Position numbers and translations under genes: made by a program
Notes under the pieces: generated by a model
Database searches by the model: none
Told to the model about the DNA's origin: nothing
What the model saw: only the letters and a program-made list of their open reading frames with translations
In this document: positions 4,304 through 13,004 of the stretch, piece by piece
Position numbering within the stretch: position 1 is the first letter of the stretch
Layout: each line of letters opens with the position of its first letter
Assembly: GCF_054482595.1 (NCBI RefSeq)
Contig: NZ_CM137008.1
DNA: 64,000 bases
Direction: 5' to 3' (one strand)

Positions 4304-4327
4304 ATGCGCCAGGATGCAGAGGTAATC

Positions 4328-6727
4328 ATGAAGCTAACCGATGCGGATAATGCCGCCGATGGCATTTTTTTCCCCGCCCTTGAGCAAAATATGATGGGTG
4401 CGGTGTTAATTAACGAAAATGATGAAGTGATGTTTTTCAACCCCGCCGCAGAGAAGCTCTGGGGGTACAAACGTGAAGAAGTCATTGGCAATAACATTGA
4501 TATGCTGATTCCGCGGGATTTGCGTCCTGCGCATCCTGAATACATTCGTCATAACCGTGAAGGCGGTAAAGCGCGCGTCGAGGGGATGAGTCGGGAGCTG
4601 CAGCTGGAGAAAAAAGACGGCAGTAAAATCTGGACCCGTTTTGCGCTATCAAAAGTGAGCGCCGAGGGGAAAGTTTATTACCTGGCGCTGGTACGGGATG
4701 CCAGCGTAGAAATGGCGCAAAAAGAACAGACCAGGCAATTGATTATTGCCGTTGACCATCTCGACCGACCGGTGATTGTCCTCGATCCGGAACGCCATAT
4801 TGTGCAGTGCAATCGCGCATTTACCGAAATGTTTGGTTACTGCATTAGCGAAGCCAGCGGTATGCAGCCCGATACACTCCTGAACATTCCTGAATTCCCT
4901 GCCGATAACCGCATTCGTTTACAACAGTTGCTATGGAAAACCGCCCGCGATCAGGACGAATTTCTGCTGTTGACGCGCACCGGTGAAAAAATCTGGATTA
5001 AAGCTTCTATCAGCCCGGTTTATGACGTGCTCGCGCATCTGCAGAACCTGGTAATGACCTTCTCGGATATCACCGAAGAACGGCAAATCCGCCAGCTTGA
5101 AGGCAATATTCTCGCCGCCATGTGCAGCAGCCCGCCATTTCATGAAATGGGGGAAATCATTTGTCGTAATATCGAATCTGTTCTCAACGAATCGCATGTT
5201 TCGCTGTTCGCACTGCGCAACGGGATGCCGATACACTGGGCGTCATCTTCCCACGGTGCAGAAGTTCAAAATGCGCAAAGCTGGTCAGCGACCATTCGTC
5301 AGCGTGATGGCGCGCCTGCGGGGATCCTGCAAATTAAAACCTCGTCAGGAGCAGAAACCAGCGCCTTTATCGAACGCGTGGCAGATATCAGCCAGCATAT
5401 GGCCGCGCTGGCGCTGGAACAGGAAAAAAGCCGTCAGCATATTGAACAACTCATCCAATTTGATCCGATGACCGGTCTGCCAAATCGCAATAACCTGCAC
5501 AATTACCTCGATGACCTGGTCGACAAAGCCGTCTCTCCGGTGGTGTATCTCATCGGTGTTGACCATATTCAGGATGTGATTGATAGCCTTGGCTATGCGT
5601 GGGCCGATCAGGCATTGCTGGAAGTGGTCAATCGCTTTCGTGAAAAACTCAAACCGGATCAGTATCTCTGTCGTATCGAAGGTACGCAGTTTGTCCTCGT
5701 GAGCCTGGAAAACGACGTCAGTAACATTACCCAAATCGCCGATGAGCTACGGAATGTGGTCAGCAAGCCGATAATGATTGACGATAAACCCTTCCCGCTT
5801 ACCTTGAGTATTGGCATCAGCTACGACGTGGGTAAAAACCGCGATTACCTGCTCTCCACTGCTCACAATGCAATGGATTATATTCGCAAGAATGGCGGTA
5901 ACGGCTGGCAGTTCTTCAGCCCGGCGATGAACGAAATGGTAAAAGAGCGTTTGGTTTTAGGCGCAGCGCTGAAAGAGGCGATTAGCAATAACCAACTGAA
6001 ACTGGTTTACCAGCCGCAAATCTTCGCAGAAACGGGTGAACTGTACGGCATCGAAGCCCTTGCTCGCTGGCACGATCCCCAGCATGGTCATGTGCCCCCT
6101 TCACGGTTTATTCCTCTCGCAGAAGAGATTGGTGAAATCGAAAATATTGGGCGCTGGGTCATCGCGGAAGCTTGCCGTCAGTTAGCAGAATGGCGTAGCC
6201 AGAATATTCATATCCCGGCGTTATCCGTGAACTTGTCGGCGCTGCACTTTCGCAGTAATCAACTGCCTAATCAGGTGTCTGATGCAATGCAAGCCTGGGG
6301 TATTGACGGCCACCAGCTGACGGTGGAAATCACGGAAAGCATGATGATGGAACACGATACCGAAATCTTTAAGCGCATTCAGATCCTGCGTGATATGGGC
6401 GTGGGTTTATCGGTAGATGATTTTGGCACGGGCTTTTCCGGATTATCCCGCTTAGTCAGTCTTCCGGTAACGGAAATCAAAATTGACAAAAGTTTTGTCG
6501 ATCGTTGTCTGACGGAAAAACGCATCCTTGCCTTACTTGAAGCCATTACCAGCATTGGGCAAAGCCTCAATTTAACCGTCGTGGCGGAAGGCGTCGAAAC
6601 CAAAGAGCAATTTGAGATGCTACGTAAGATCCACTGTCGAGTTATTCAGGGATATTTCTTTTCCCGCCCCCTACCCGCCGAAGAAATTCCAGGCTGGATG
6701 AGCAGCGTGTTACCGCTGAAAATCTGA
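4328..6727 (+). CDS. dosP: c-di-GMP phosphodiesterase DosP (PAS heme sensor, GGDEF-like and EAL domains)
   Basis: ORF 4304-6727; start placed at MKLTDADN to give 799 aa; EAL-domain motifs in C-terminal half; an in-frame start at 4304 is also possible. Confidence 0.9.
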   Translation: MKLTDADNAADGIFFPALEQNMMGAVLINENDEVMFFNPAAEKLWGYKREEVIGNNIDMLIPRDLRPAHPEYIRHNREGGKARVEGMSRELQLEKKDGSKIWTRFALSKVSAEGKVYYLALVRDASVEMAQKEQTRQLIIAVDHLDRPVIVLDPERHIVQCNRAFTEMFGYCISEASGMQPDTLLNIPEFPADNRIRLQQLLWKTARDQDEFLLLTRTGEKIWIKASISPVYDVLAHLQNLVMTFSDITEERQIRQLEGNILAAMCSSPPFHEMGEIICRNIESVLNESHVSLFALRNGMPIHWASSSHGAEVQNAQSWSATIRQRDGAPAGILQIKTSSGAETSAFIERVADISQHMAALALEQEKSRQHIEQLIQFDPMTGLPNRNNLHNYLDDLVDKAVSPVVYLIGVDHIQDVIDSLGYAWADQALLEVVNRFREKLKPDQYLCRIEGTQFVLVSLENDVSNITQIADELRNVVSKPIMIDDKPFPLTLSIGISYDVGKNRDYLLSTAHNAMDYIRKNGGNGWQFFSPAMNEMVKERLVLGAALKEAISNNQLKLVYQPQIFAETGELYGIEALARWHDPQHGHVPPSRFIPLAEEIGEIENIGRWVIAEACRQLAEWRSQNIHIPALSVNLSALHFRSNQLPNQVSDAMQAWGIDGHQLTVEITESMMMEHDTEIFKRIQILRDMGVGLSVDDFGTGFSGLSRLVSLPVTEIKIDKSFVDRCLTEKRILALLEAITSIGQSLNLTVVAEGVETKEQFEMLRKIHCRVIQGYFFSRPLPAEEIPGWMSSVLPLKI

Positions 6728-6740
6728 CAAATTCCTCTCG

Positions 6741-6760
6741 CCCGCACTCGCGGGTTTTCA
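6741..6760 (+). terminator. Rho-independent terminator after dosP
   Basis: cccgcactcgcggg hairpin followed by ttttc. Confidence 0.65.
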
Positions 6761-6924
6761 TTTAACGTGACACTGTCACTTAAATACTGTGATTTCAGCT
6801 ACGATTCCGGGAGATTCCTTCCTTAACTTCCCCTCTTGCACCAAAACTGCACTACGCTGCACAAATGTTGATCAAAAGTTAAAAAATATAACTTTAAGCC
6901 AGCATTCTGGCGCTTATCCCGGCA

Positions 6925-6940
6925 TGGCATGAGATCTGCA
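6925..6940 (+). promoter_or_regulatory. Candidate sigma54 (-24/-12) promoter for the ddpX operon
   Basis: TGGCATG-N4-CTGCA matches the TGGCACG-N4-TTGCW consensus with GG/GC spacing of 12, about 45 bp upstream of the ddpX ATG; ddp is known to be nitrogen (NtrC) regulated. Confidence 0.55.
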
Positions 6941-6984
6941 TAAGCGGAAAGCGCAGCAATTTTTGTCTTATACAGGAACCGTTT

Positions 6985-7566
6985 ATGTCGGATACCACCG
7001 AACTGGTTGATTTAGCCGTGATCTTCCCTGATCTGGAGATCGAATTGAAATACGCCTGCGCTGATAACATCACAGGTAAAGCTATTTATCAGCAAGCGCG
7101 TTGTCTGTTACACAAGGATGCGATTACCGCGCTGGCGAAAAGTATCAGTATCGCCCAGCTCTCAGGCTTACAACTGGTGATTTACGATGCGTACCGCCCA
7201 CAACAAGCACAGGCGATGTTGTGGCAAGCCTGCCCAGACCCGCAATATGTTGTTGATGTGACGGTCGGTTCTAATCACAGCCGTGGCACGGCGATCGACC
7301 TGACGCTTCGTGATGAGCACGGGAACATCCTCGATATGGGCGCAGGGTTCGATGAAATGCACGAGCGCTCCCATGCCTATCACCCTTCCGTCCCGCCCGC
7401 CGCTCAGCGCAATCGCCTGTTGCTGAATGCGATAATGACTGGTGGCGGTTTTGTCGGTATCTCCAGCGAATGGTGGCACTTCGAATTACCCCAGGCAGCG
7501 AGTTACCCACTGCTCGCTGATCAATTCACCTGTTTTATATCCCCTGGCACACAGCACGTCAGTTAA
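6985..7566 (+). CDS. ddpX: D-Ala-D-Ala dipeptidase DdpX
   Basis: 193-aa ORF; first gene of the ddp cluster by synteny. Confidence 0.9.
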   Translation: MSDTTELVDLAVIFPDLEIELKYACADNITGKAIYQQARCLLHKDAITALAKSISIAQLSGLQLVIYDAYRPQQAQAMLWQACPDPQYVVDVTVGSNHSRGTAIDLTLRDEHGNILDMGAGFDEMHERSHAYHPSVPPAAQRNRLLLNAIMTGGGFVGISSEWWHFELPQAASYPLLADQFTCFISPGTQHVS

Positions 7567-7579
7567 TCAGGAAACTGTC

Positions 7580-9130
7580 ATGAAAAGATCGATATCGTTT
7601 CGTCCTACATTGCTCGCGCTCGTCCTTGCCACAACTTTCCCGGTTGCGCACGCCGCCGTACCGAAAGATATGCTGGTGATTGGTAAGGCCGCCGATCCAC
7701 AAACCCTCGACCCGGCGGTAACAATAGATAATAACGACTGGACGGTGACCTACCCGTCTTATCAGCGGCTGGTTCAGTACAAAACGGACGGTGATAAAGG
7801 CTCAACCGACGTTGAAGGCGATCTGGCGAGTGGCTGGAAAGCGTCTGACGATCAAAAAGAGTGGACGTTCACCCTGAAGGACAATGCTAAATTTGCCGAT
7901 GGCACACCCGTCACTGCCGAAGCAGTAAAACTCTCTTTTGAGCGGTTACTAAAAATCGGCCAGGGGCCAGCAGAAGCATTTCCCAAAGATTTAAAGATTG
8001 ATGCTCCCGACGAACATACGGTGAAGTTTACCCTTAGCCAGCCATTTGCACCGTTCCTCTACACGCTGGCGAATGACGGTGCATCCATTATCAATCCGGC
8101 GGTGTTAAAGGAACATGCGGCGGATGATGCCCGCGGCTTCCTCGCGCAAAATACCGCCGGTTCCGGACCATTTATGCTGAAAAGCTGGCAAAAAGGTCAG
8201 CAATTAGTTCTGGTGCCAAATCCGCATTACCCTGGCAATAAACCGAACTTTAAGCGAGTATCGGTAAAAATTATTGGTGAAAGTGCCTCCCGTCGCCTGC
8301 AGCTCTCCCGTGGCGACATTGACATTGCCGATGCGCTGCCGGTGGATCAACTCAACGCCCTGAAGCAGGAAAATAAAGTCAATGTGGCAGAGTATCCGTC
8401 ACTGCGCGTCACCTATCTGTATCTGAATAACAGCAAAGCGCCACTTAATCAGGCGGATCTGCGGCGGGCCATTTCCTGGTCTACCGATTATCAGGGCATG
8501 GTTAACGGCATTCTGAGTGGTAACGGAAAACAGATGCGCGGCCCGATTCCGGAAGGCATGTGGGGCTACGATGCGACGGCAATGCAATACAACCATGACG
8601 AAACGAAAGCCAAAGCTGAATGGGATAAAGTGACGAACAAACCCACCAGCCTGACGTTTCTCTATTCTGATAATGATCCGAACTGGGAGCCTATTGCTCT
8701 GGCGACACAATCCAGTCTCAACAAGCTGGGCATCAATGTGAAGCTGGAAAAGCTGGCGAACGCCACCATGCGCGACAGAGTGGGTAAAGGTGATTACGAC
8801 ATTGCGATTGGCAACTGGAGTCCGGATTTTGCCGACCCGTATATGTTTATGAATTACTGGTTTGAGTCAGACAAAAAAGGTCTGCCGGGTAACCGCTCGT
8901 TCTATGAAAACAGTGAGGTCGATAAGTTACTGCGCAATGCGCTCGCGACCACCGACCAGACGCAGCGTACCCGGAACTACCAGCAGGCACAGAAAATCGT
9001 CATTGATGACGCTGCTTATGTGTACCTGTTCCAGAAAAACTACCAACTGGCGATGAACAAAGAGGTGAAAGGCTTTGTGTTCAATCCCATGCTGGAACAG
9101 GTCTTCAATATCAATACCATGAGTAAATAA
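7580..9130 (+). CDS. ddpA: Periplasmic dipeptide-binding protein DdpA (ABC transporter)
   Basis: ORF 7442-9130; start placed at MKRSISF, which is followed by a signal peptide (…PVAHA); family 5 substrate-binding protein features. Confidence 0.85.
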   Translation: MKRSISFRPTLLALVLATTFPVAHAAVPKDMLVIGKAADPQTLDPAVTIDNNDWTVTYPSYQRLVQYKTDGDKGSTDVEGDLASGWKASDDQKEWTFTLKDNAKFADGTPVTAEAVKLSFERLLKIGQGPAEAFPKDLKIDAPDEHTVKFTLSQPFAPFLYTLANDGASIINPAVLKEHAADDARGFLAQNTAGSGPFMLKSWQKGQQLVLVPNPHYPGNKPNFKRVSVKIIGESASRRLQLSRGDIDIADALPVDQLNALKQENKVNVAEYPSLRVTYLYLNNSKAPLNQADLRRAISWSTDYQGMVNGILSGNGKQMRGPIPEGMWGYDATAMQYNHDETKAKAEWDKVTNKPTSLTFLYSDNDPNWEPIALATQSSLNKLGINVKLEKLANATMRDRVGKGDYDIAIGNWSPDFADPYMFMNYWFESDKKGLPGNRSFYENSEVDKLLRNALATTDQTQRTRNYQQAQKIVIDDAAYVYLFQKNYQLAMNKEVKGFVFNPMLEQVFNINTMSK

Positions 9131-9131
9131 C

Positions 9132-10154
9132 GTGACCTTCTGGAGTATTTTACGCCAACGCTGCTGGGGGCTGGTGCTCGTGGTGGCGGGCGTCTGCGTG
9201 ATTACGTTTATTATCTCGCATCTGATCCCCGGCGATCCGGCGCGGTTACTGGCGGGTGACCGCGCCAGCGATGCTATCGTGGAAAATATTCGCCAGCAAC
9301 TGGGACTGGACCAGCCACTGTATGTACAGTTTTACCGCTACGTCAGCGACCTGTTTCATGGTGACCTGGGAACATCCATTCGTACCGGGCGTCCGGTGCT
9401 GGAAGAGTTGCGTATATTTTTCCCGGCGACGCTGGAGCTGGCTTTTTGTGCCCTGCTGCTGGCACTCTTGATTGGCATCCCGCTGGGCATACTCTCTGCA
9501 GTCTGGCGAAATCGCTGGCTGGATCATCTGGTGCGAATAATGGCCATTACCGGAATCTCCACACCTGCGTTCTGGCTTGGACTGGGCGTCATTGTGCTGT
9601 TTTATGGTCATCTGCAAATTCTTCCCGGCGGCGGAAGGCTTGATGACTGGCTGGATCCACCAACGCACGTTACCGGCTTTTATCTGCTCGATGCGCTGCT
9701 TGAAGGCAACGGTGAAGTATTCTTCAATGCGTTGCAACATCTCATCTTACCGGCATTAACGCTGGCGTTCGTTCACCTGGGAATTGTCGCTCGCCAGATC
9801 CGCTCAGCGATGCTGGAACAATTGAGTGAAGACTACATTCGTACCGCCCGGGCCAGCGGCTTGCCCGGCTGGTATATCGTTTTATGTTATGCGCTACCCA
9901 ATGCGTTGATCCCATCGATTACCGTATTGGGTCTGGCGCTGGGCGATTTGTTGTATGGCGCAGTGCTCACCGAAACCGTTTTTGCCTGGCCCGGAATGGG
10001 GGCATGGGTAGTGACATCAATACAGGCGCTCGACTTCCCTGCGGTGATGGGATTTGCCGTCGTGGTTTCGTTTGCTTATGTGCTGGTCAACCTGGTAGTG
10101 GATTTGCTCTATTTGTGGATTGATCCGCGTATCGGACGTGGAGGTGATGAATGA
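9132..10154 (+). CDS. ddpB: ABC transporter permease DdpB
   Basis: 340-aa multi-TM ORF with GTG start; operon position. Confidence 0.85.
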   Translation: MTFWSILRQRCWGLVLVVAGVCVITFIISHLIPGDPARLLAGDRASDAIVENIRQQLGLDQPLYVQFYRYVSDLFHGDLGTSIRTGRPVLEELRIFFPATLELAFCALLLALLIGIPLGILSAVWRNRWLDHLVRIMAITGISTPAFWLGLGVIVLFYGHLQILPGGGRLDDWLDPPTHVTGFYLLDALLEGNGEVFFNALQHLILPALTLAFVHLGIVARQIRSAMLEQLSEDYIRTARASGLPGWYIVLCYALPNALIPSITVLGLALGDLLYGAVLTETVFAWPGMGAWVVTSIQALDFPAVMGFAVVVSFAYVLVNLVVDLLYLWIDPRIGRGGDE

Positions 10155-11047
10155 TGCTAAGCGAGGAAACGTCCGCCGTACGCCCAGCAAAACAAACGCG
10201 ATTTAACGGTGCAAAACTGGTATGGATGCTGAAAGGCAGTCCGCTCACCGTGACCGGCGCAGTCATCATTGTATTAATGCTATTGATGATGATTTTTTCA
10301 CCGTGGCTTGCGACGCATGATCCCAACGCCATTGATTTAACCGCCCGCCTTTTGCCGCCTTCTGCGGCGCACTGGTTTGGCACCGATGAAGTGGGACGCG
10401 ATCTGTTCAGCCGCGTACTGGTCGGCAGTCAGCAATCAATTCTCGCCGGATTAGTCGTGGTTGCCATTGCGGGTATGATTGGTTCGCTACTCGGATGTCT
10501 ATCCGGTGTGCTTGGCGGACGCGCAGACGCCATCATCATGCGCATCATGGACATTATGCTGTCGATTCCTTCGTTGGTACTGACAATGGCACTGGCTGCC
10601 GCTCTCGGGCCGAGTTTATTTAACGCCATGCTGGCGATTGCTATTGTGCGAATTCCCTTTTATGTGCGCCTGGCGCGGGGGCAAGCATTAGTTGTACGCC
10701 AGTATACCTATGTTCAGGCGGCGAAAACCTTTGGTGCGTCGCGTTGGCATCTGATCAGCTGGCATATTTTACGTAACTCCCTGCCGCCGCTGATCGTGCA
10801 GGCATCGCTGGATATCGGTAGCGCGATTTTAATGGCCGCCACGTTGGGATTTATTGGCCTGGGTGCTCAACAACCGAGTGCTGAATGGGGCGCGATGGTA
10901 GCAAATGGTCGCAACTATGTACTCGATCAGTGGTGGTATTGCGTATTTCCGGGGGCAGCGATTTTGCTTACCGCCGTCGGGTTTAATCTCTTTGGTGATG
11001 GTATTCGCGATCTGCTTGACCCGAAAGCAGGAGGAAAGCAGTCATGA
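10151..11047 (+). CDS. ddpC: ABC transporter permease DdpC
   Basis: 298-aa ORF; 4-nt overlap with ddpB; permease-type TM segments. Confidence 0.85.
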   Translation: MMLSEETSAVRPAKQTRFNGAKLVWMLKGSPLTVTGAVIIVLMLLMMIFSPWLATHDPNAIDLTARLLPPSAAHWFGTDEVGRDLFSRVLVGSQQSILAGLVVVAIAGMIGSLLGCLSGVLGGRADAIIMRIMDIMLSIPSLVLTMALAAALGPSLFNAMLAIAIVRIPFYVRLARGQALVVRQYTYVQAAKTFGASRWHLISWHILRNSLPPLIVQASLDIGSAILMAATLGFIGLGAQQPSAEWGAMVANGRNYVLDQWWYCVFPGAAILLTAVGFNLFGDGIRDLLDPKAGGKQS

Positions 11048-12030
11048 CCCAACCCGTTCTGGACATTCAACAGCTGCATTTGAGTTTCCCCGGTTTTAAC
11101 GGTGATGTTCACGCGCTCAACAATGTGTCCTTGCAGATTAACCGCGGTGAAATTGTCGGTCTGGTGGGAGAATCCGGCTCAGGTAAATCAGTCACCGCAA
11201 TGCTGATTATGCGTCTGCTACCGACGGGCAGTTATTGCGTACATCGGGGGCAGATTTCACTGCTGGGAGACGATGTTCTTAACGCTCGGGAAAAACAGCT
11301 TCGTCAGTGGCGCGGCGCACGAGTGGCGATGATCTTTCAGGAACCGATGACCGCCCTCAATCCGACACGTCGAATAGGTCTTCAGATGATGGACGTGATC
11401 CGCCATCATCAACCAATAAGCCGTCGGGAAGCCAGAGCTAAAGCGATTGACCTGCTGGAAGAGATGCAAATCCCGGATGCCGTGGAAGTTATGTCGCGCT
11501 ATCCGTTTGAGCTTTCAGGTGGTATGCGCCAGCGGGTAATGATTGCGCTGGCATTCTCCTGCGAGCCGCAATTGATTATTGCCGACGAACCGACTACGGC
11601 GCTGGACGTCACGGTACAGTTGCAGGTACTGCGTTTGCTTAAACATAAAGCCCGCGCCAGTGGAACTGCGGTACTGTTCATCAGCCATGATATGGCCGTG
11701 GTATCGCAACTGTGCGATAGCGTTTACGTGATGTATGCCGGAAGCGTAATTGAAAGCGGCGTGACGGCAGACGTTATCCATCATCCCCGGCATCCGTATA
11801 CCATTGGTTTGCTGCAATGCGCACCAGAACATGGAGTACCACGCCAGCCATTACCCGCCATTCCAGGGACGGTACCAAACCTCACCCATTTGCCTGACGG
11901 CTGCGCTTTTCGCGATCGTTGCTATGCGGCAGGTGCACAGTGTGAAAACGTCCCGGCGCTGACAGCGTGTGGTGACAACAACCAGCGCTGCGCCTGTTGG
12001 TATCCGCAGCAGGAGGTCATAAGTGTCTGA
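11044..12030 (+). CDS. ddpD: ABC transporter ATP-binding protein DdpD
   Basis: 328-aa ORF; Walker A GESGSGKS and signature LSGGMRQR seen. Confidence 0.9.
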   Translation: MTQPVLDIQQLHLSFPGFNGDVHALNNVSLQINRGEIVGLVGESGSGKSVTAMLIMRLLPTGSYCVHRGQISLLGDDVLNAREKQLRQWRGARVAMIFQEPMTALNPTRRIGLQMMDVIRHHQPISRREARAKAIDLLEEMQIPDAVEVMSRYPFELSGGMRQRVMIALAFSCEPQLIIADEPTTALDVTVQLQVLRLLKHKARASGTAVLFISHDMAVVSQLCDSVYVMYAGSVIESGVTADVIHHPRHPYTIGLLQCAPEHGVPRQPLPAIPGTVPNLTHLPDGCAFRDRCYAAGAQCENVPALTACGDNNQRCACWYPQQEVISV

Positions 12031-12949
12031 CACGTTATTAACGTTACGCGACGTCCATATCAATTTCCCGGCCCGTAAAAACTGGCTTGGTAAAACTACG
12101 GAACATGTTCATGCCATTAATGGTATTGATTTACAGATCCGCCGTGGTGAAACCTTAGGGATCGTCGGCGAGTCAGGCTGCGGCAAAAGCACCCTCGCAC
12201 AGCTTTTAATGGGTATGCTGCAACCGAGCCACGGGCAATACATCCGTTCTGGCTCACAACGCATTTTGCAGATGGTGTTTCAGGACCCGCTCTCTTCGCT
12301 CAATCCGCGCTTACCGGTGTGGCGCATCATCACAGAACCGCTCTGGATAGCTAAGCGTAGTAGTGAACAACAGCGGCGAGCGTTGGCAGAGGAGCTGGCT
12401 GTGCAGGTGGGTATTCGTCCGGAGTATCTCGACCGCCTGCCTCATGCGTTCTCCGGCGGGCAGCGGCAACGCATCGCCATTGCCAGAGCACTCTCTTCGC
12501 AGCCTGACGTGATTGTGCTTGATGAGCCAACCTCAGCGCTGGATATCTCCGTGCAGGCGCAGATCCTCAATTTACTGGTAACGCTACAGGAAAATCACGG
12601 GCTGACTTATGTGCTGATTTCACACAATGTCTCGGTGATACGTCATATGAGCGATCGGGTGGCGGTGATGTATCTCGGGCAGATTGTGGAATTAGGGGAA
12701 GCGCAACAGGTGCTAACGGCTCCGGCACATCCATACACCCGATTATTGCTGGATTCTCTCCCCGCCATTGATAAACCGCTGGAGGAAGAATGGGCATTAC
12801 GTAAAACGGATCTGCCGGGAAACCGCACGTTGCCGCAAGGCTGTTTTTTCTACGAACGTTGCCCTCTGGCAACCCACGGATGTGAAGTCCGGCAATCATT
12901 AGCAATAAGGGAGGACGGACGTGAGCTCCGGTGCTGGCGGGCGCTGTAG
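12023..12949 (+). CDS. ddpF: ABC transporter ATP-binding protein DdpF
   Basis: 308-aa ORF; Walker A GESGCGKST and signature FSGGQRQR seen. Confidence 0.9.
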   Translation: MSDTLLTLRDVHINFPARKNWLGKTTEHVHAINGIDLQIRRGETLGIVGESGCGKSTLAQLLMGMLQPSHGQYIRSGSQRILQMVFQDPLSSLNPRLPVWRIITEPLWIAKRSSEQQRRALAEELAVQVGIRPEYLDRLPHAFSGGQRQRIAIARALSSQPDVIVLDEPTSALDISVQAQILNLLVTLQENHGLTYVLISHNVSVIRHMSDRVAVMYLGQIVELGEAQQVLTAPAHPYTRLLLDSLPAIDKPLEEEWALRKTDLPGNRTLPQGCFFYERCPLATHGCEVRQSLAIREDGRELRCWRAL

Positions 12950-13004
12950 AGATGCTAACAACGCATCAGGCATTCACGCGCCTGACGCGTCATCCGGCAA
13001 TGCT

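Follow-up and report, generated by a model that had tools for sequence, protein, structure and literature searches.

The window analysed here, a 64-kb stretch of the E. coli chromosome (NCBI RefSeq assembly GCF_054482595.1, contig NZ_CM137008.1), contains dosP (4304–6727), and ddpX and the genes of the ddp transporter come next in the same orientation. The spacer between dosP and ddpX is about 257 bp long, and the region that controls ddp expression starts downstream of ~6800. The features of the spacer and the gene that follows it are listed below:

6740–6755, + strand: intrinsic terminator of the dosCP operon, GCCCGC-ACTC-GCGGGT and then TTTCATTT, from a terminator scan and RNA folding
6837–6853, + strand: enhancer site A, TGCACCAAAACTGCACT, a candidate weak NtrC dyad with its centre at 6845 (-106)
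6858–6874, + strand: enhancer site B, TGCACAAATGTTGATCA, a candidate weak NtrC dyad with its centre at 6866 (-85)
6875–6923, + strand: enhancer–promoter spacer, AT-rich, containing an A6 run and the conserved sequence GTTAA at 6878–6882
6924–6940, + strand: sigma-54 (RpoN) promoter ddpXp, aTGGCATGAGATCTGCA, with GG at 6926–6927 (-24) and GC at 6938–6939 (-12)
6951, + strand: predicted transcription start, 12 nt past the C of the -12 GC and 19 nt past the motif centre
6952–6984, + strand: 5'UTR, with the Shine-Dalgarno sequence AGGA at 6974–6977
6985–7566, + strand: ddpX (D-alanyl-D-alanine dipeptidase), first gene of ddpXABCDF, from the ORF list and the RefSeq annotation

The ddp control region is bounded upstream by the terminator of the dosCP operon, which is not itself a part of the promoter. 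A perfect palindrome, GTGACAcTGTCAC (6768–6780, in the region 6760–6785), forms a second hairpin after this terminator and is conserved in Escherichia. Its candidacy as a CRP-like or ddp regulatory site was rejected, as the spacing of its half-sites is wrong for CRP, the sequence forms a hairpin, and it stays with dosP in ddp-less strains. Because the palindrome is kept in strains that lack ddp, it belongs to the 3' end of dosCP.

An earlier note on this DNA, made from the letters alone, had placed the sequence TGGCATG-N4-CTGCA at 6925–6940. The element is present at this position as TGGCATG-AGAT-CTGCA, with the canonical GG-N10-GC spacing, and the stretch TGGCATGAGATCTGCA carries two substitutions relative to TGGCAC-N5-TTGCW, both at tolerated positions. 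The strict -24/-12 pattern occurs once, with 0.14 occurrences expected per 64-kb window, and the consensus with up to two mismatches is no rarer than chance in the window (12 found versus 14.7 expected). The position weight matrix scan for RpoN that the earlier note had proposed was performed with a matrix trained on 49 other ChIP-bound sigma-54 sites, from which ddpX was left out, and it returned 6924–6940 as the top match in the 64-kb window, with a score of 15.8 bits. The training sites themselves score between 7.9 and 21.1 bits with a median of 15.5, which places ddpXp at about the median, and a Markov null predicts ~0.6 matches as good as ddpXp per 64 kb. The sequence alone would not prove ddpXp; its position, orientation, conservation, and identity with published binding data decide the matter. 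The element is oriented on the same strand as ddpX, and the predicted start at 6951, which was placed by the rule of Bonocora 2015, lies 34 nt before the ATG.

The ddpXp promoter is already known: it has entries in RegulonDB and EcoCyc, and both targeted and genome-scale experiments have described it (Bonocora 2015, Zhao 2010, Shimada 2021). The catalogued promoter shares its 17-mer, strand, and distance to ddpX with the element described here. The 17-mer ATGGCATGAGATCTGCA agrees at every base with OS16, a sigma-54 ChIP-seq site of Bonocora 2015 (PMC4591121), and the table of that study also states the distance of 34 nt to the ATG. Coordinates were mapped by subtracting the U00096.2 coordinate from 1568085; the motif centre of OS16 (1561153 in U00096.2) thereby falls at window position 6932, the peak centre at 6936, and the predicted start at 6951. 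Zhao 2010 (PMC2831329) placed this element between -60 and -43 relative to the ATG and found its expression to be sigma-54-dependent, and an RpoN-holoenzyme gSELEX peak at 1,561,132 (Shimada 2021, PMC8743547) corresponds to window position 6953. The sigma-54 reading proposed in the earlier note is thus borne out, and binding of sigma-54 RNA polymerase to the -24/-12 element at 6924–6940 has been demonstrated. A 2011 paper also cites ddpX among the RegulonDB sigma-54 promoters, and a search of the literature mentioning ddpX found no experimentally mapped transcription start for the gene. The promoter itself is a re-identification of a RegulonDB/EcoCyc entry, which matters little, and its detection by the note-maker shows that enhancer-dependent promoters can be recognised from raw sequence.

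Other matches to the sigma-54 matrix were also considered. A second sigma-54-like motif, CTTGCACCAAAACTGCA at 6835–6851 (12.2 bits), was rejected, since it carries TG rather than GG at -24 and scores 7.6 bits in Citrobacter. Judged from its letters, this match is probably a coincidence, in which the NtrC half-site of site A overlaps the -24/-12 consensus. The next-best matches in the window are ATGGCAAAATTTTTGAA at 1586–1602 on the minus strand (14.1 bits) and CTGGCGCTACCGTTGCA at 32056–32072 on the plus strand (13.2 bits), and these two may be chance or intragenic sites.

Upstream of the promoter, a resemblance to NtrC half-sites had been noted at about 6838–6865. Copies of TGCAC are indeed found there, starting at 6837 (TGCACCA), 6848, and 6858, all on the plus strand and 63–88 bp upstream of the -24 element, and this one cluster of three same-strand TGCAC copies within 30 bp compares with 0.027 expected per 64 kb. 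The copies are not three equivalent half-sites; a scan for the NtrC dyad (TGCACY-N5-GGTGCA, 17 bp) with up to three mismatches came up empty in the dosP–ddpX spacer, and the reading of three equivalent half-sites was then replaced by that of two weak dyads. The first and third copies are the left halves of site A and site B, and the middle copy (6848–6852) is part of the degenerate right half of site A. Site A carries five mismatches to TGCACCAnnnTGGTGCA, and its left half, TGCACCA, agrees fully with the consensus half-site. Site B carries four mismatches to the same consensus, which makes it the best match in the spacer, and its left half is likewise intact; by chance, 135 nt would hold 0.05 NtrC sites with up to four mismatches. 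The centres of the two sites are 21 bp, or two helical turns, apart, and both sites lie on one helical face at -106 and -85 from 6951, within the range of ~80–150 bp upstream. The 17-bp NtrC consensus was calibrated on twelve NtrC/sigma-54 promoters of MG1655, with the following numbers of mismatches at the best site or sites:

glnA, glnH, and nac: 1–2 mismatches
astC, glnK, rutA, and yhdW: 3–4 mismatches
argT, yeaG, gltI, and potF: 5 or more mismatches
ddpX: 4 mismatches at 6858–6874, and 5 at both 6837–6853 and 6848–6864

Neither of the ddpX dyads is as stringent as the footprinted NtrC sites, with four and five mismatches versus one or two at glnA, glnH, and nac. The TGCAC copies at ddpX also all point in one direction, whereas footprinted enhancers have convergent pairs. 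The AT-rich spacer between the enhancer and the promoter probably provides the bending needed for looping. The IHF consensus WATCAANNNNTTR has no match with up to one mismatch in 6728–6984, and the best IHF-like match is GATCAAAAGTTAA at 6870–6882, with two mismatches.

The enhancer and the promoter are strongly conserved. Among three Escherichia species-level lineages, variable columns make up 5.9% of 6832–6984 versus 28% of 6728–6831 (p = 1.5e-6), with none among the 17 columns of the -24/-12 element and one among the 31 columns of the TGCAC block. Within the E. coli population, an identity of 99% or more over 6832–6945 is seen in 96% of records, versus 72.5% for ddpX coding DNA of equal length. 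The cross-species comparison covered 80 ddpX loci of Enterobacterales, with one genome per species, and 72 of them have, upstream of ddpX and in its orientation, a sigma-54 motif that scores 11 bits or more. A scan of 400 nt upstream had suggested that the promoter is specific to Escherichia, and this view was overturned when the scan was widened to 1.5 kb. Between -180 and -46, NtrC dyads with up to three mismatches occur at 31% of the 72 loci versus 0.8% of 710 control pieces, and dyads with up to four mismatches at 72% versus 5.8%, percentages that overstate independence, as the 80 loci are phylogenetically related.

An alignment of 13 genomes from ~9 genera reveals the details of this conservation. 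The TGGCA and TGC of the -24/-12 element are invariant across genera, sites A and B align across the ~9 genera, and both the left part of site A, TGCACCAAAA, and the GTTAA of the spacer (6878–6882) are nearly invariant. The right half of site A occurs in the variants CTGCACT, CTGAACT, GTGAACT, ATGCGCG, and TGGATCG, and the middle TGCAC reads TGAAC in Citrobacter and Enterobacter. The enhancer of Citrobacter reads TTGCACCAAAACTGAACTACGCTGCACAAATGTTGATCATTAGTTAA, the -24/-12 element of this genus scores 15.4 bits, and site B of E. coli recurs unchanged in Citrobacter and Enterobacter. The orthologues of site B in Serratia (TGCCCAAATGTTGTGCA) and Huaxiibacter (TGCACAAATGTTGTGCG) are nearer to the consensus, with three mismatches each, and the orthologous sites in several genera are good NtrC dyads with two to three mismatches. 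Site B lies at -85 in Escherichia versus -96 in Citrobacter and Enterobacter, a difference in spacer length of 11 bp; as far as the aligned letters indicate, the spacer differences tend to keep the helical phase. The control module is thus ancient and common to Enterobacterales.

The binding of NtrC to this region has been described both in vivo and in vitro. An NtrC ChIP-seq peak was found in vivo at ddpXABCDF by Brown 2014 (PMC4066584), and gel shift assays with a 409-bp ddpX probe revealed NtrC, holoenzyme, and ternary complexes (Shimada 2021, PMC8743547); the primers of this probe map to 6653–7061. The same study reported that ddpX mRNA rises 104-fold upon nitrogen depletion, which its authors credit to RpoN plus NtrC. 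Together, the ChIP-seq peak, the ternary gel shift, and the rise in mRNA support the nitrogen-limitation induction of ddp that the earlier note had proposed. The main-text table of NtrC-alone gSELEX peaks does not contain ddpX, and the gene is mentioned in other sections of the paper (PMC8743547). Extra holoenzyme bands on the ddpX probe were also noted by Shimada 2021 (PMC8743547). A separate study reported down-regulation of ddpX in a cya mutant (PMC4512719). In window coordinates, the published NtrC ChIP peak covers 6904–6984, on the promoter and off the enhancer, and the NtrC ChIP peaks at glnH, nac, and astC likewise lie on the promoter rather than on their known enhancers. The placing of the enhancer by the peak of Brown 2014 was dropped, because this same promoter offset at glnH, nac, and astC means that NtrC ChIP coordinates cannot place an enhancer. 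The papers describe NtrC binding without base-pair resolution of the sites; the two-dyad NtrC reading and the cross-genus homology, which are derived from the sequence, are the additions of the present analysis, and they propose, at the level of single bases, where the unfootprinted NtrC sites of ddp may lie.

The region 6836–6984 is thus very probably the control region of ddpXABCDF, a classical enhancer-dependent sigma-54 promoter at which NtrC-P acts from sites A and B, and which descends from an ancestral module. As is general for promoters of this kind, the holoenzyme would wait at 6924–6940 as a closed complex. Upon nitrogen limitation, NtrC-P would fill sites A and B cooperatively, as their sequence, phasing, and orthology suggest, and would then oligomerise and contact the polymerase through a DNA loop formed by the AT-rich spacer. 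The promoter would be opened by ATP hydrolysis, and transcription would start near the predicted position 6951. Since the left half is the only good part of either dyad, a high level of NtrC-P is probably required at this enhancer, a requirement that would fit a scavenging operon that is turned on in real starvation.

This arrangement resembles that of glnAp2 and glnHp2, which also combine a -24/-12 element with at least two NtrC sites on one helix face ~80–150 bp upstream and are induced by nitrogen limitation. The sites of glnA and glnH are near-perfect dyads with one to two mismatches, located at -108 to -140. In contrast, the sites of ddpX have four to five mismatches, keep only their left halves intact, and lie closer to the start (-85 and -106), and the region has no IHF site at up to one mismatch.

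The RpoS dependence of the operon, which the earlier note had mentioned as reported, is indeed described for ddpXA in EDL933 (Dong & Schellhorn 2009, PMC2907692), and it is left unexplained by the sigma-54/NtrC mechanism. A second, RpoS-linked route into ddpX may exist, a tentative proposal that would complement the main explanation rather than replace it; transcripts would arrive either by read-through from dosCP or from an unrecognised sigma-S promoter in the AT-rich spacer. The dosCP operon is RpoS-dependent, the end of dosP lies about 258 nt upstream on the same strand, and the dosCP terminator consists of a 6-bp stem only, with an interrupted T-tract. However, two hairpins follow dosP with an RNA fold z-score of -3.8, and no -35/-10 pair for sigma-70 or sigma-S with 16–18 bp spacing was found in 6600–7100, where the best -10-like hexamer, TATAAC at 6887–6892, is without the final T. 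Putative read-through from dosCP is a plausible form of this RpoS route.

Dual dependence on nitrogen limitation and stationary phase is also a property of astCADBE and yeaGH, and astCADBE has been listed with RpoS, RpoN, and NtrC (PMC2907692). The -24/-12 core of yeaG in MG1655, ATGGCATGAGAGTTGCT, is nearly identical to that of ddpX, and the two promoters are alike in having no strong NtrC dyad, the best one at yeaG carrying six mismatches. Unlike ddpX, astC is served by distinct NtrC sites that have been characterised; they lie far upstream (-233 and -253) and carry three to four mismatches. The astC gene also has its own sigma-S promoter, whereas ddpX has no recognisable one in 6600–7100.

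In most Enterobacterales, the module would drive more than the ddp genes. An RpiR-like gene lies between the sigma-54 motif and ddpX in 64 of the 80 loci; in Citrobacter, for example, the enhancer and the -24/-12 element lie upstream of an RpiR-family (HTH_6) gene (L094:9120-9986) that ends 14 nt before ddpX. The nearest NCBIfam model for the encoded protein is SapR, and because the match of 374 bits is below the cut-off of 500, the protein is referred to here only as an RpiR-family regulator. The 64-kb window contains no homologue of this protein. The sequence downstream of the -12 element in Escherichia differs from that in all other genera aligned, and the 3' part of the E. coli 5'UTR (~6952–6984) gives a local alignment to the last codons of the Citrobacter RpiR-like gene and its junction with ddpX. 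This remnant in the 5'UTR, the lack of a homologue in the window, and the altered sequence past the -12 element therefore indicate that Escherichia deleted the regulator gene. From the aligned sequences, Escherichia appears to have lost the RpiR-family gene by a deletion that joined the promoter to ddpX, a finding that is new but minor.

The ddp unit also varies within E. coli. The block ~6804–12960, which comprises the enhancer, the promoter, and ddpXABCDF, is absent from ~1,100 of 5,426 complete E. coli genomes, in which the dosP end is kept. In Nissle 1917, the block is replaced by ~68 bp, and dosP is then followed by osmC. The GC content of the block is 52.9%, versus 50.7% for the window.

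It is on balance probable that the E. coli ddp promoter is the remnant of an ancestral sigma-54-driven operon, rpiR-like plus ddpXABCDF, which is intact in most Enterobacterales. The ancestral module would drive the RpiR-family gene and then ddpXABCDF, and the deletion in Escherichia, extending from just past the -12 element to the last codons of the regulator gene, would have fused the promoter to ddpX. On this account, control in E. coli would now depend only on the general nitrogen status, through a weak, half-consensus NtrC enhancer, probably with an addition of RpoS-linked read-through from dosCP, and the whole unit (~6804–12960) is present or absent among E. coli lineages. This suggests that the loss of a pathway-specific RpiR-family regulator makes E. 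coli K-12 atypical, which matters for the use of E. coli ddp regulation as a model of D-Ala-D-Ala and cell-wall peptide scavenging in other enterics.

The conserved block at 6837–6882 could also serve chiefly as an operator for a different protein, for example the ancestral RpiR-family regulator, IHF, or ArcA, with NtrC acting from other weak sites or from solution; this reading is considered unlikely. The ddpX dyads match the NtrC consensus poorly, CAAATGTTG and GTTAA are among the most invariant letters although they lie outside that consensus, and a gene for a specific regulator follows the promoter in 64 of the 80 loci. In addition, the sequence TGTTGATCAAAAGTTAA at 6866–6882 appears to resemble both an ArcA direct repeat and an IHF site with two mismatches. 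However, Escherichia has no RpiR-like gene, and yet the block is almost invariant in this genus, so some protein that is present in E. coli uses it. Conservation is highest in the TGCAC left halves, their orthologues in several genera form good NtrC dyads, the positions of the sites and their 21-bp phasing suit an NtrC enhancer, and NtrC binds the region both in vivo and in vitro (PMC4066584, PMC8743547). The possibility that the motifs are chance matches without function, to which the chance-level frequency of consensus-like -24/-12 matches in the window and the 0.6 equally good matrix matches expected per 64 kb might point, is refuted by the published ChIP-seq, gel-shift, and RT-qPCR data and by the order-wide conservation, and can be set aside with near certainty.

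In the enhancer of Huaxiibacter (L048:436-580), the 10-bp unit CTGCACTACG is duplicated in tandem, which adds one helical turn and an extra TGCAC. Outside Escherichia, the loci L050 and L084 and a few others are also without the RpiR-like gene, possibly through independent losses.
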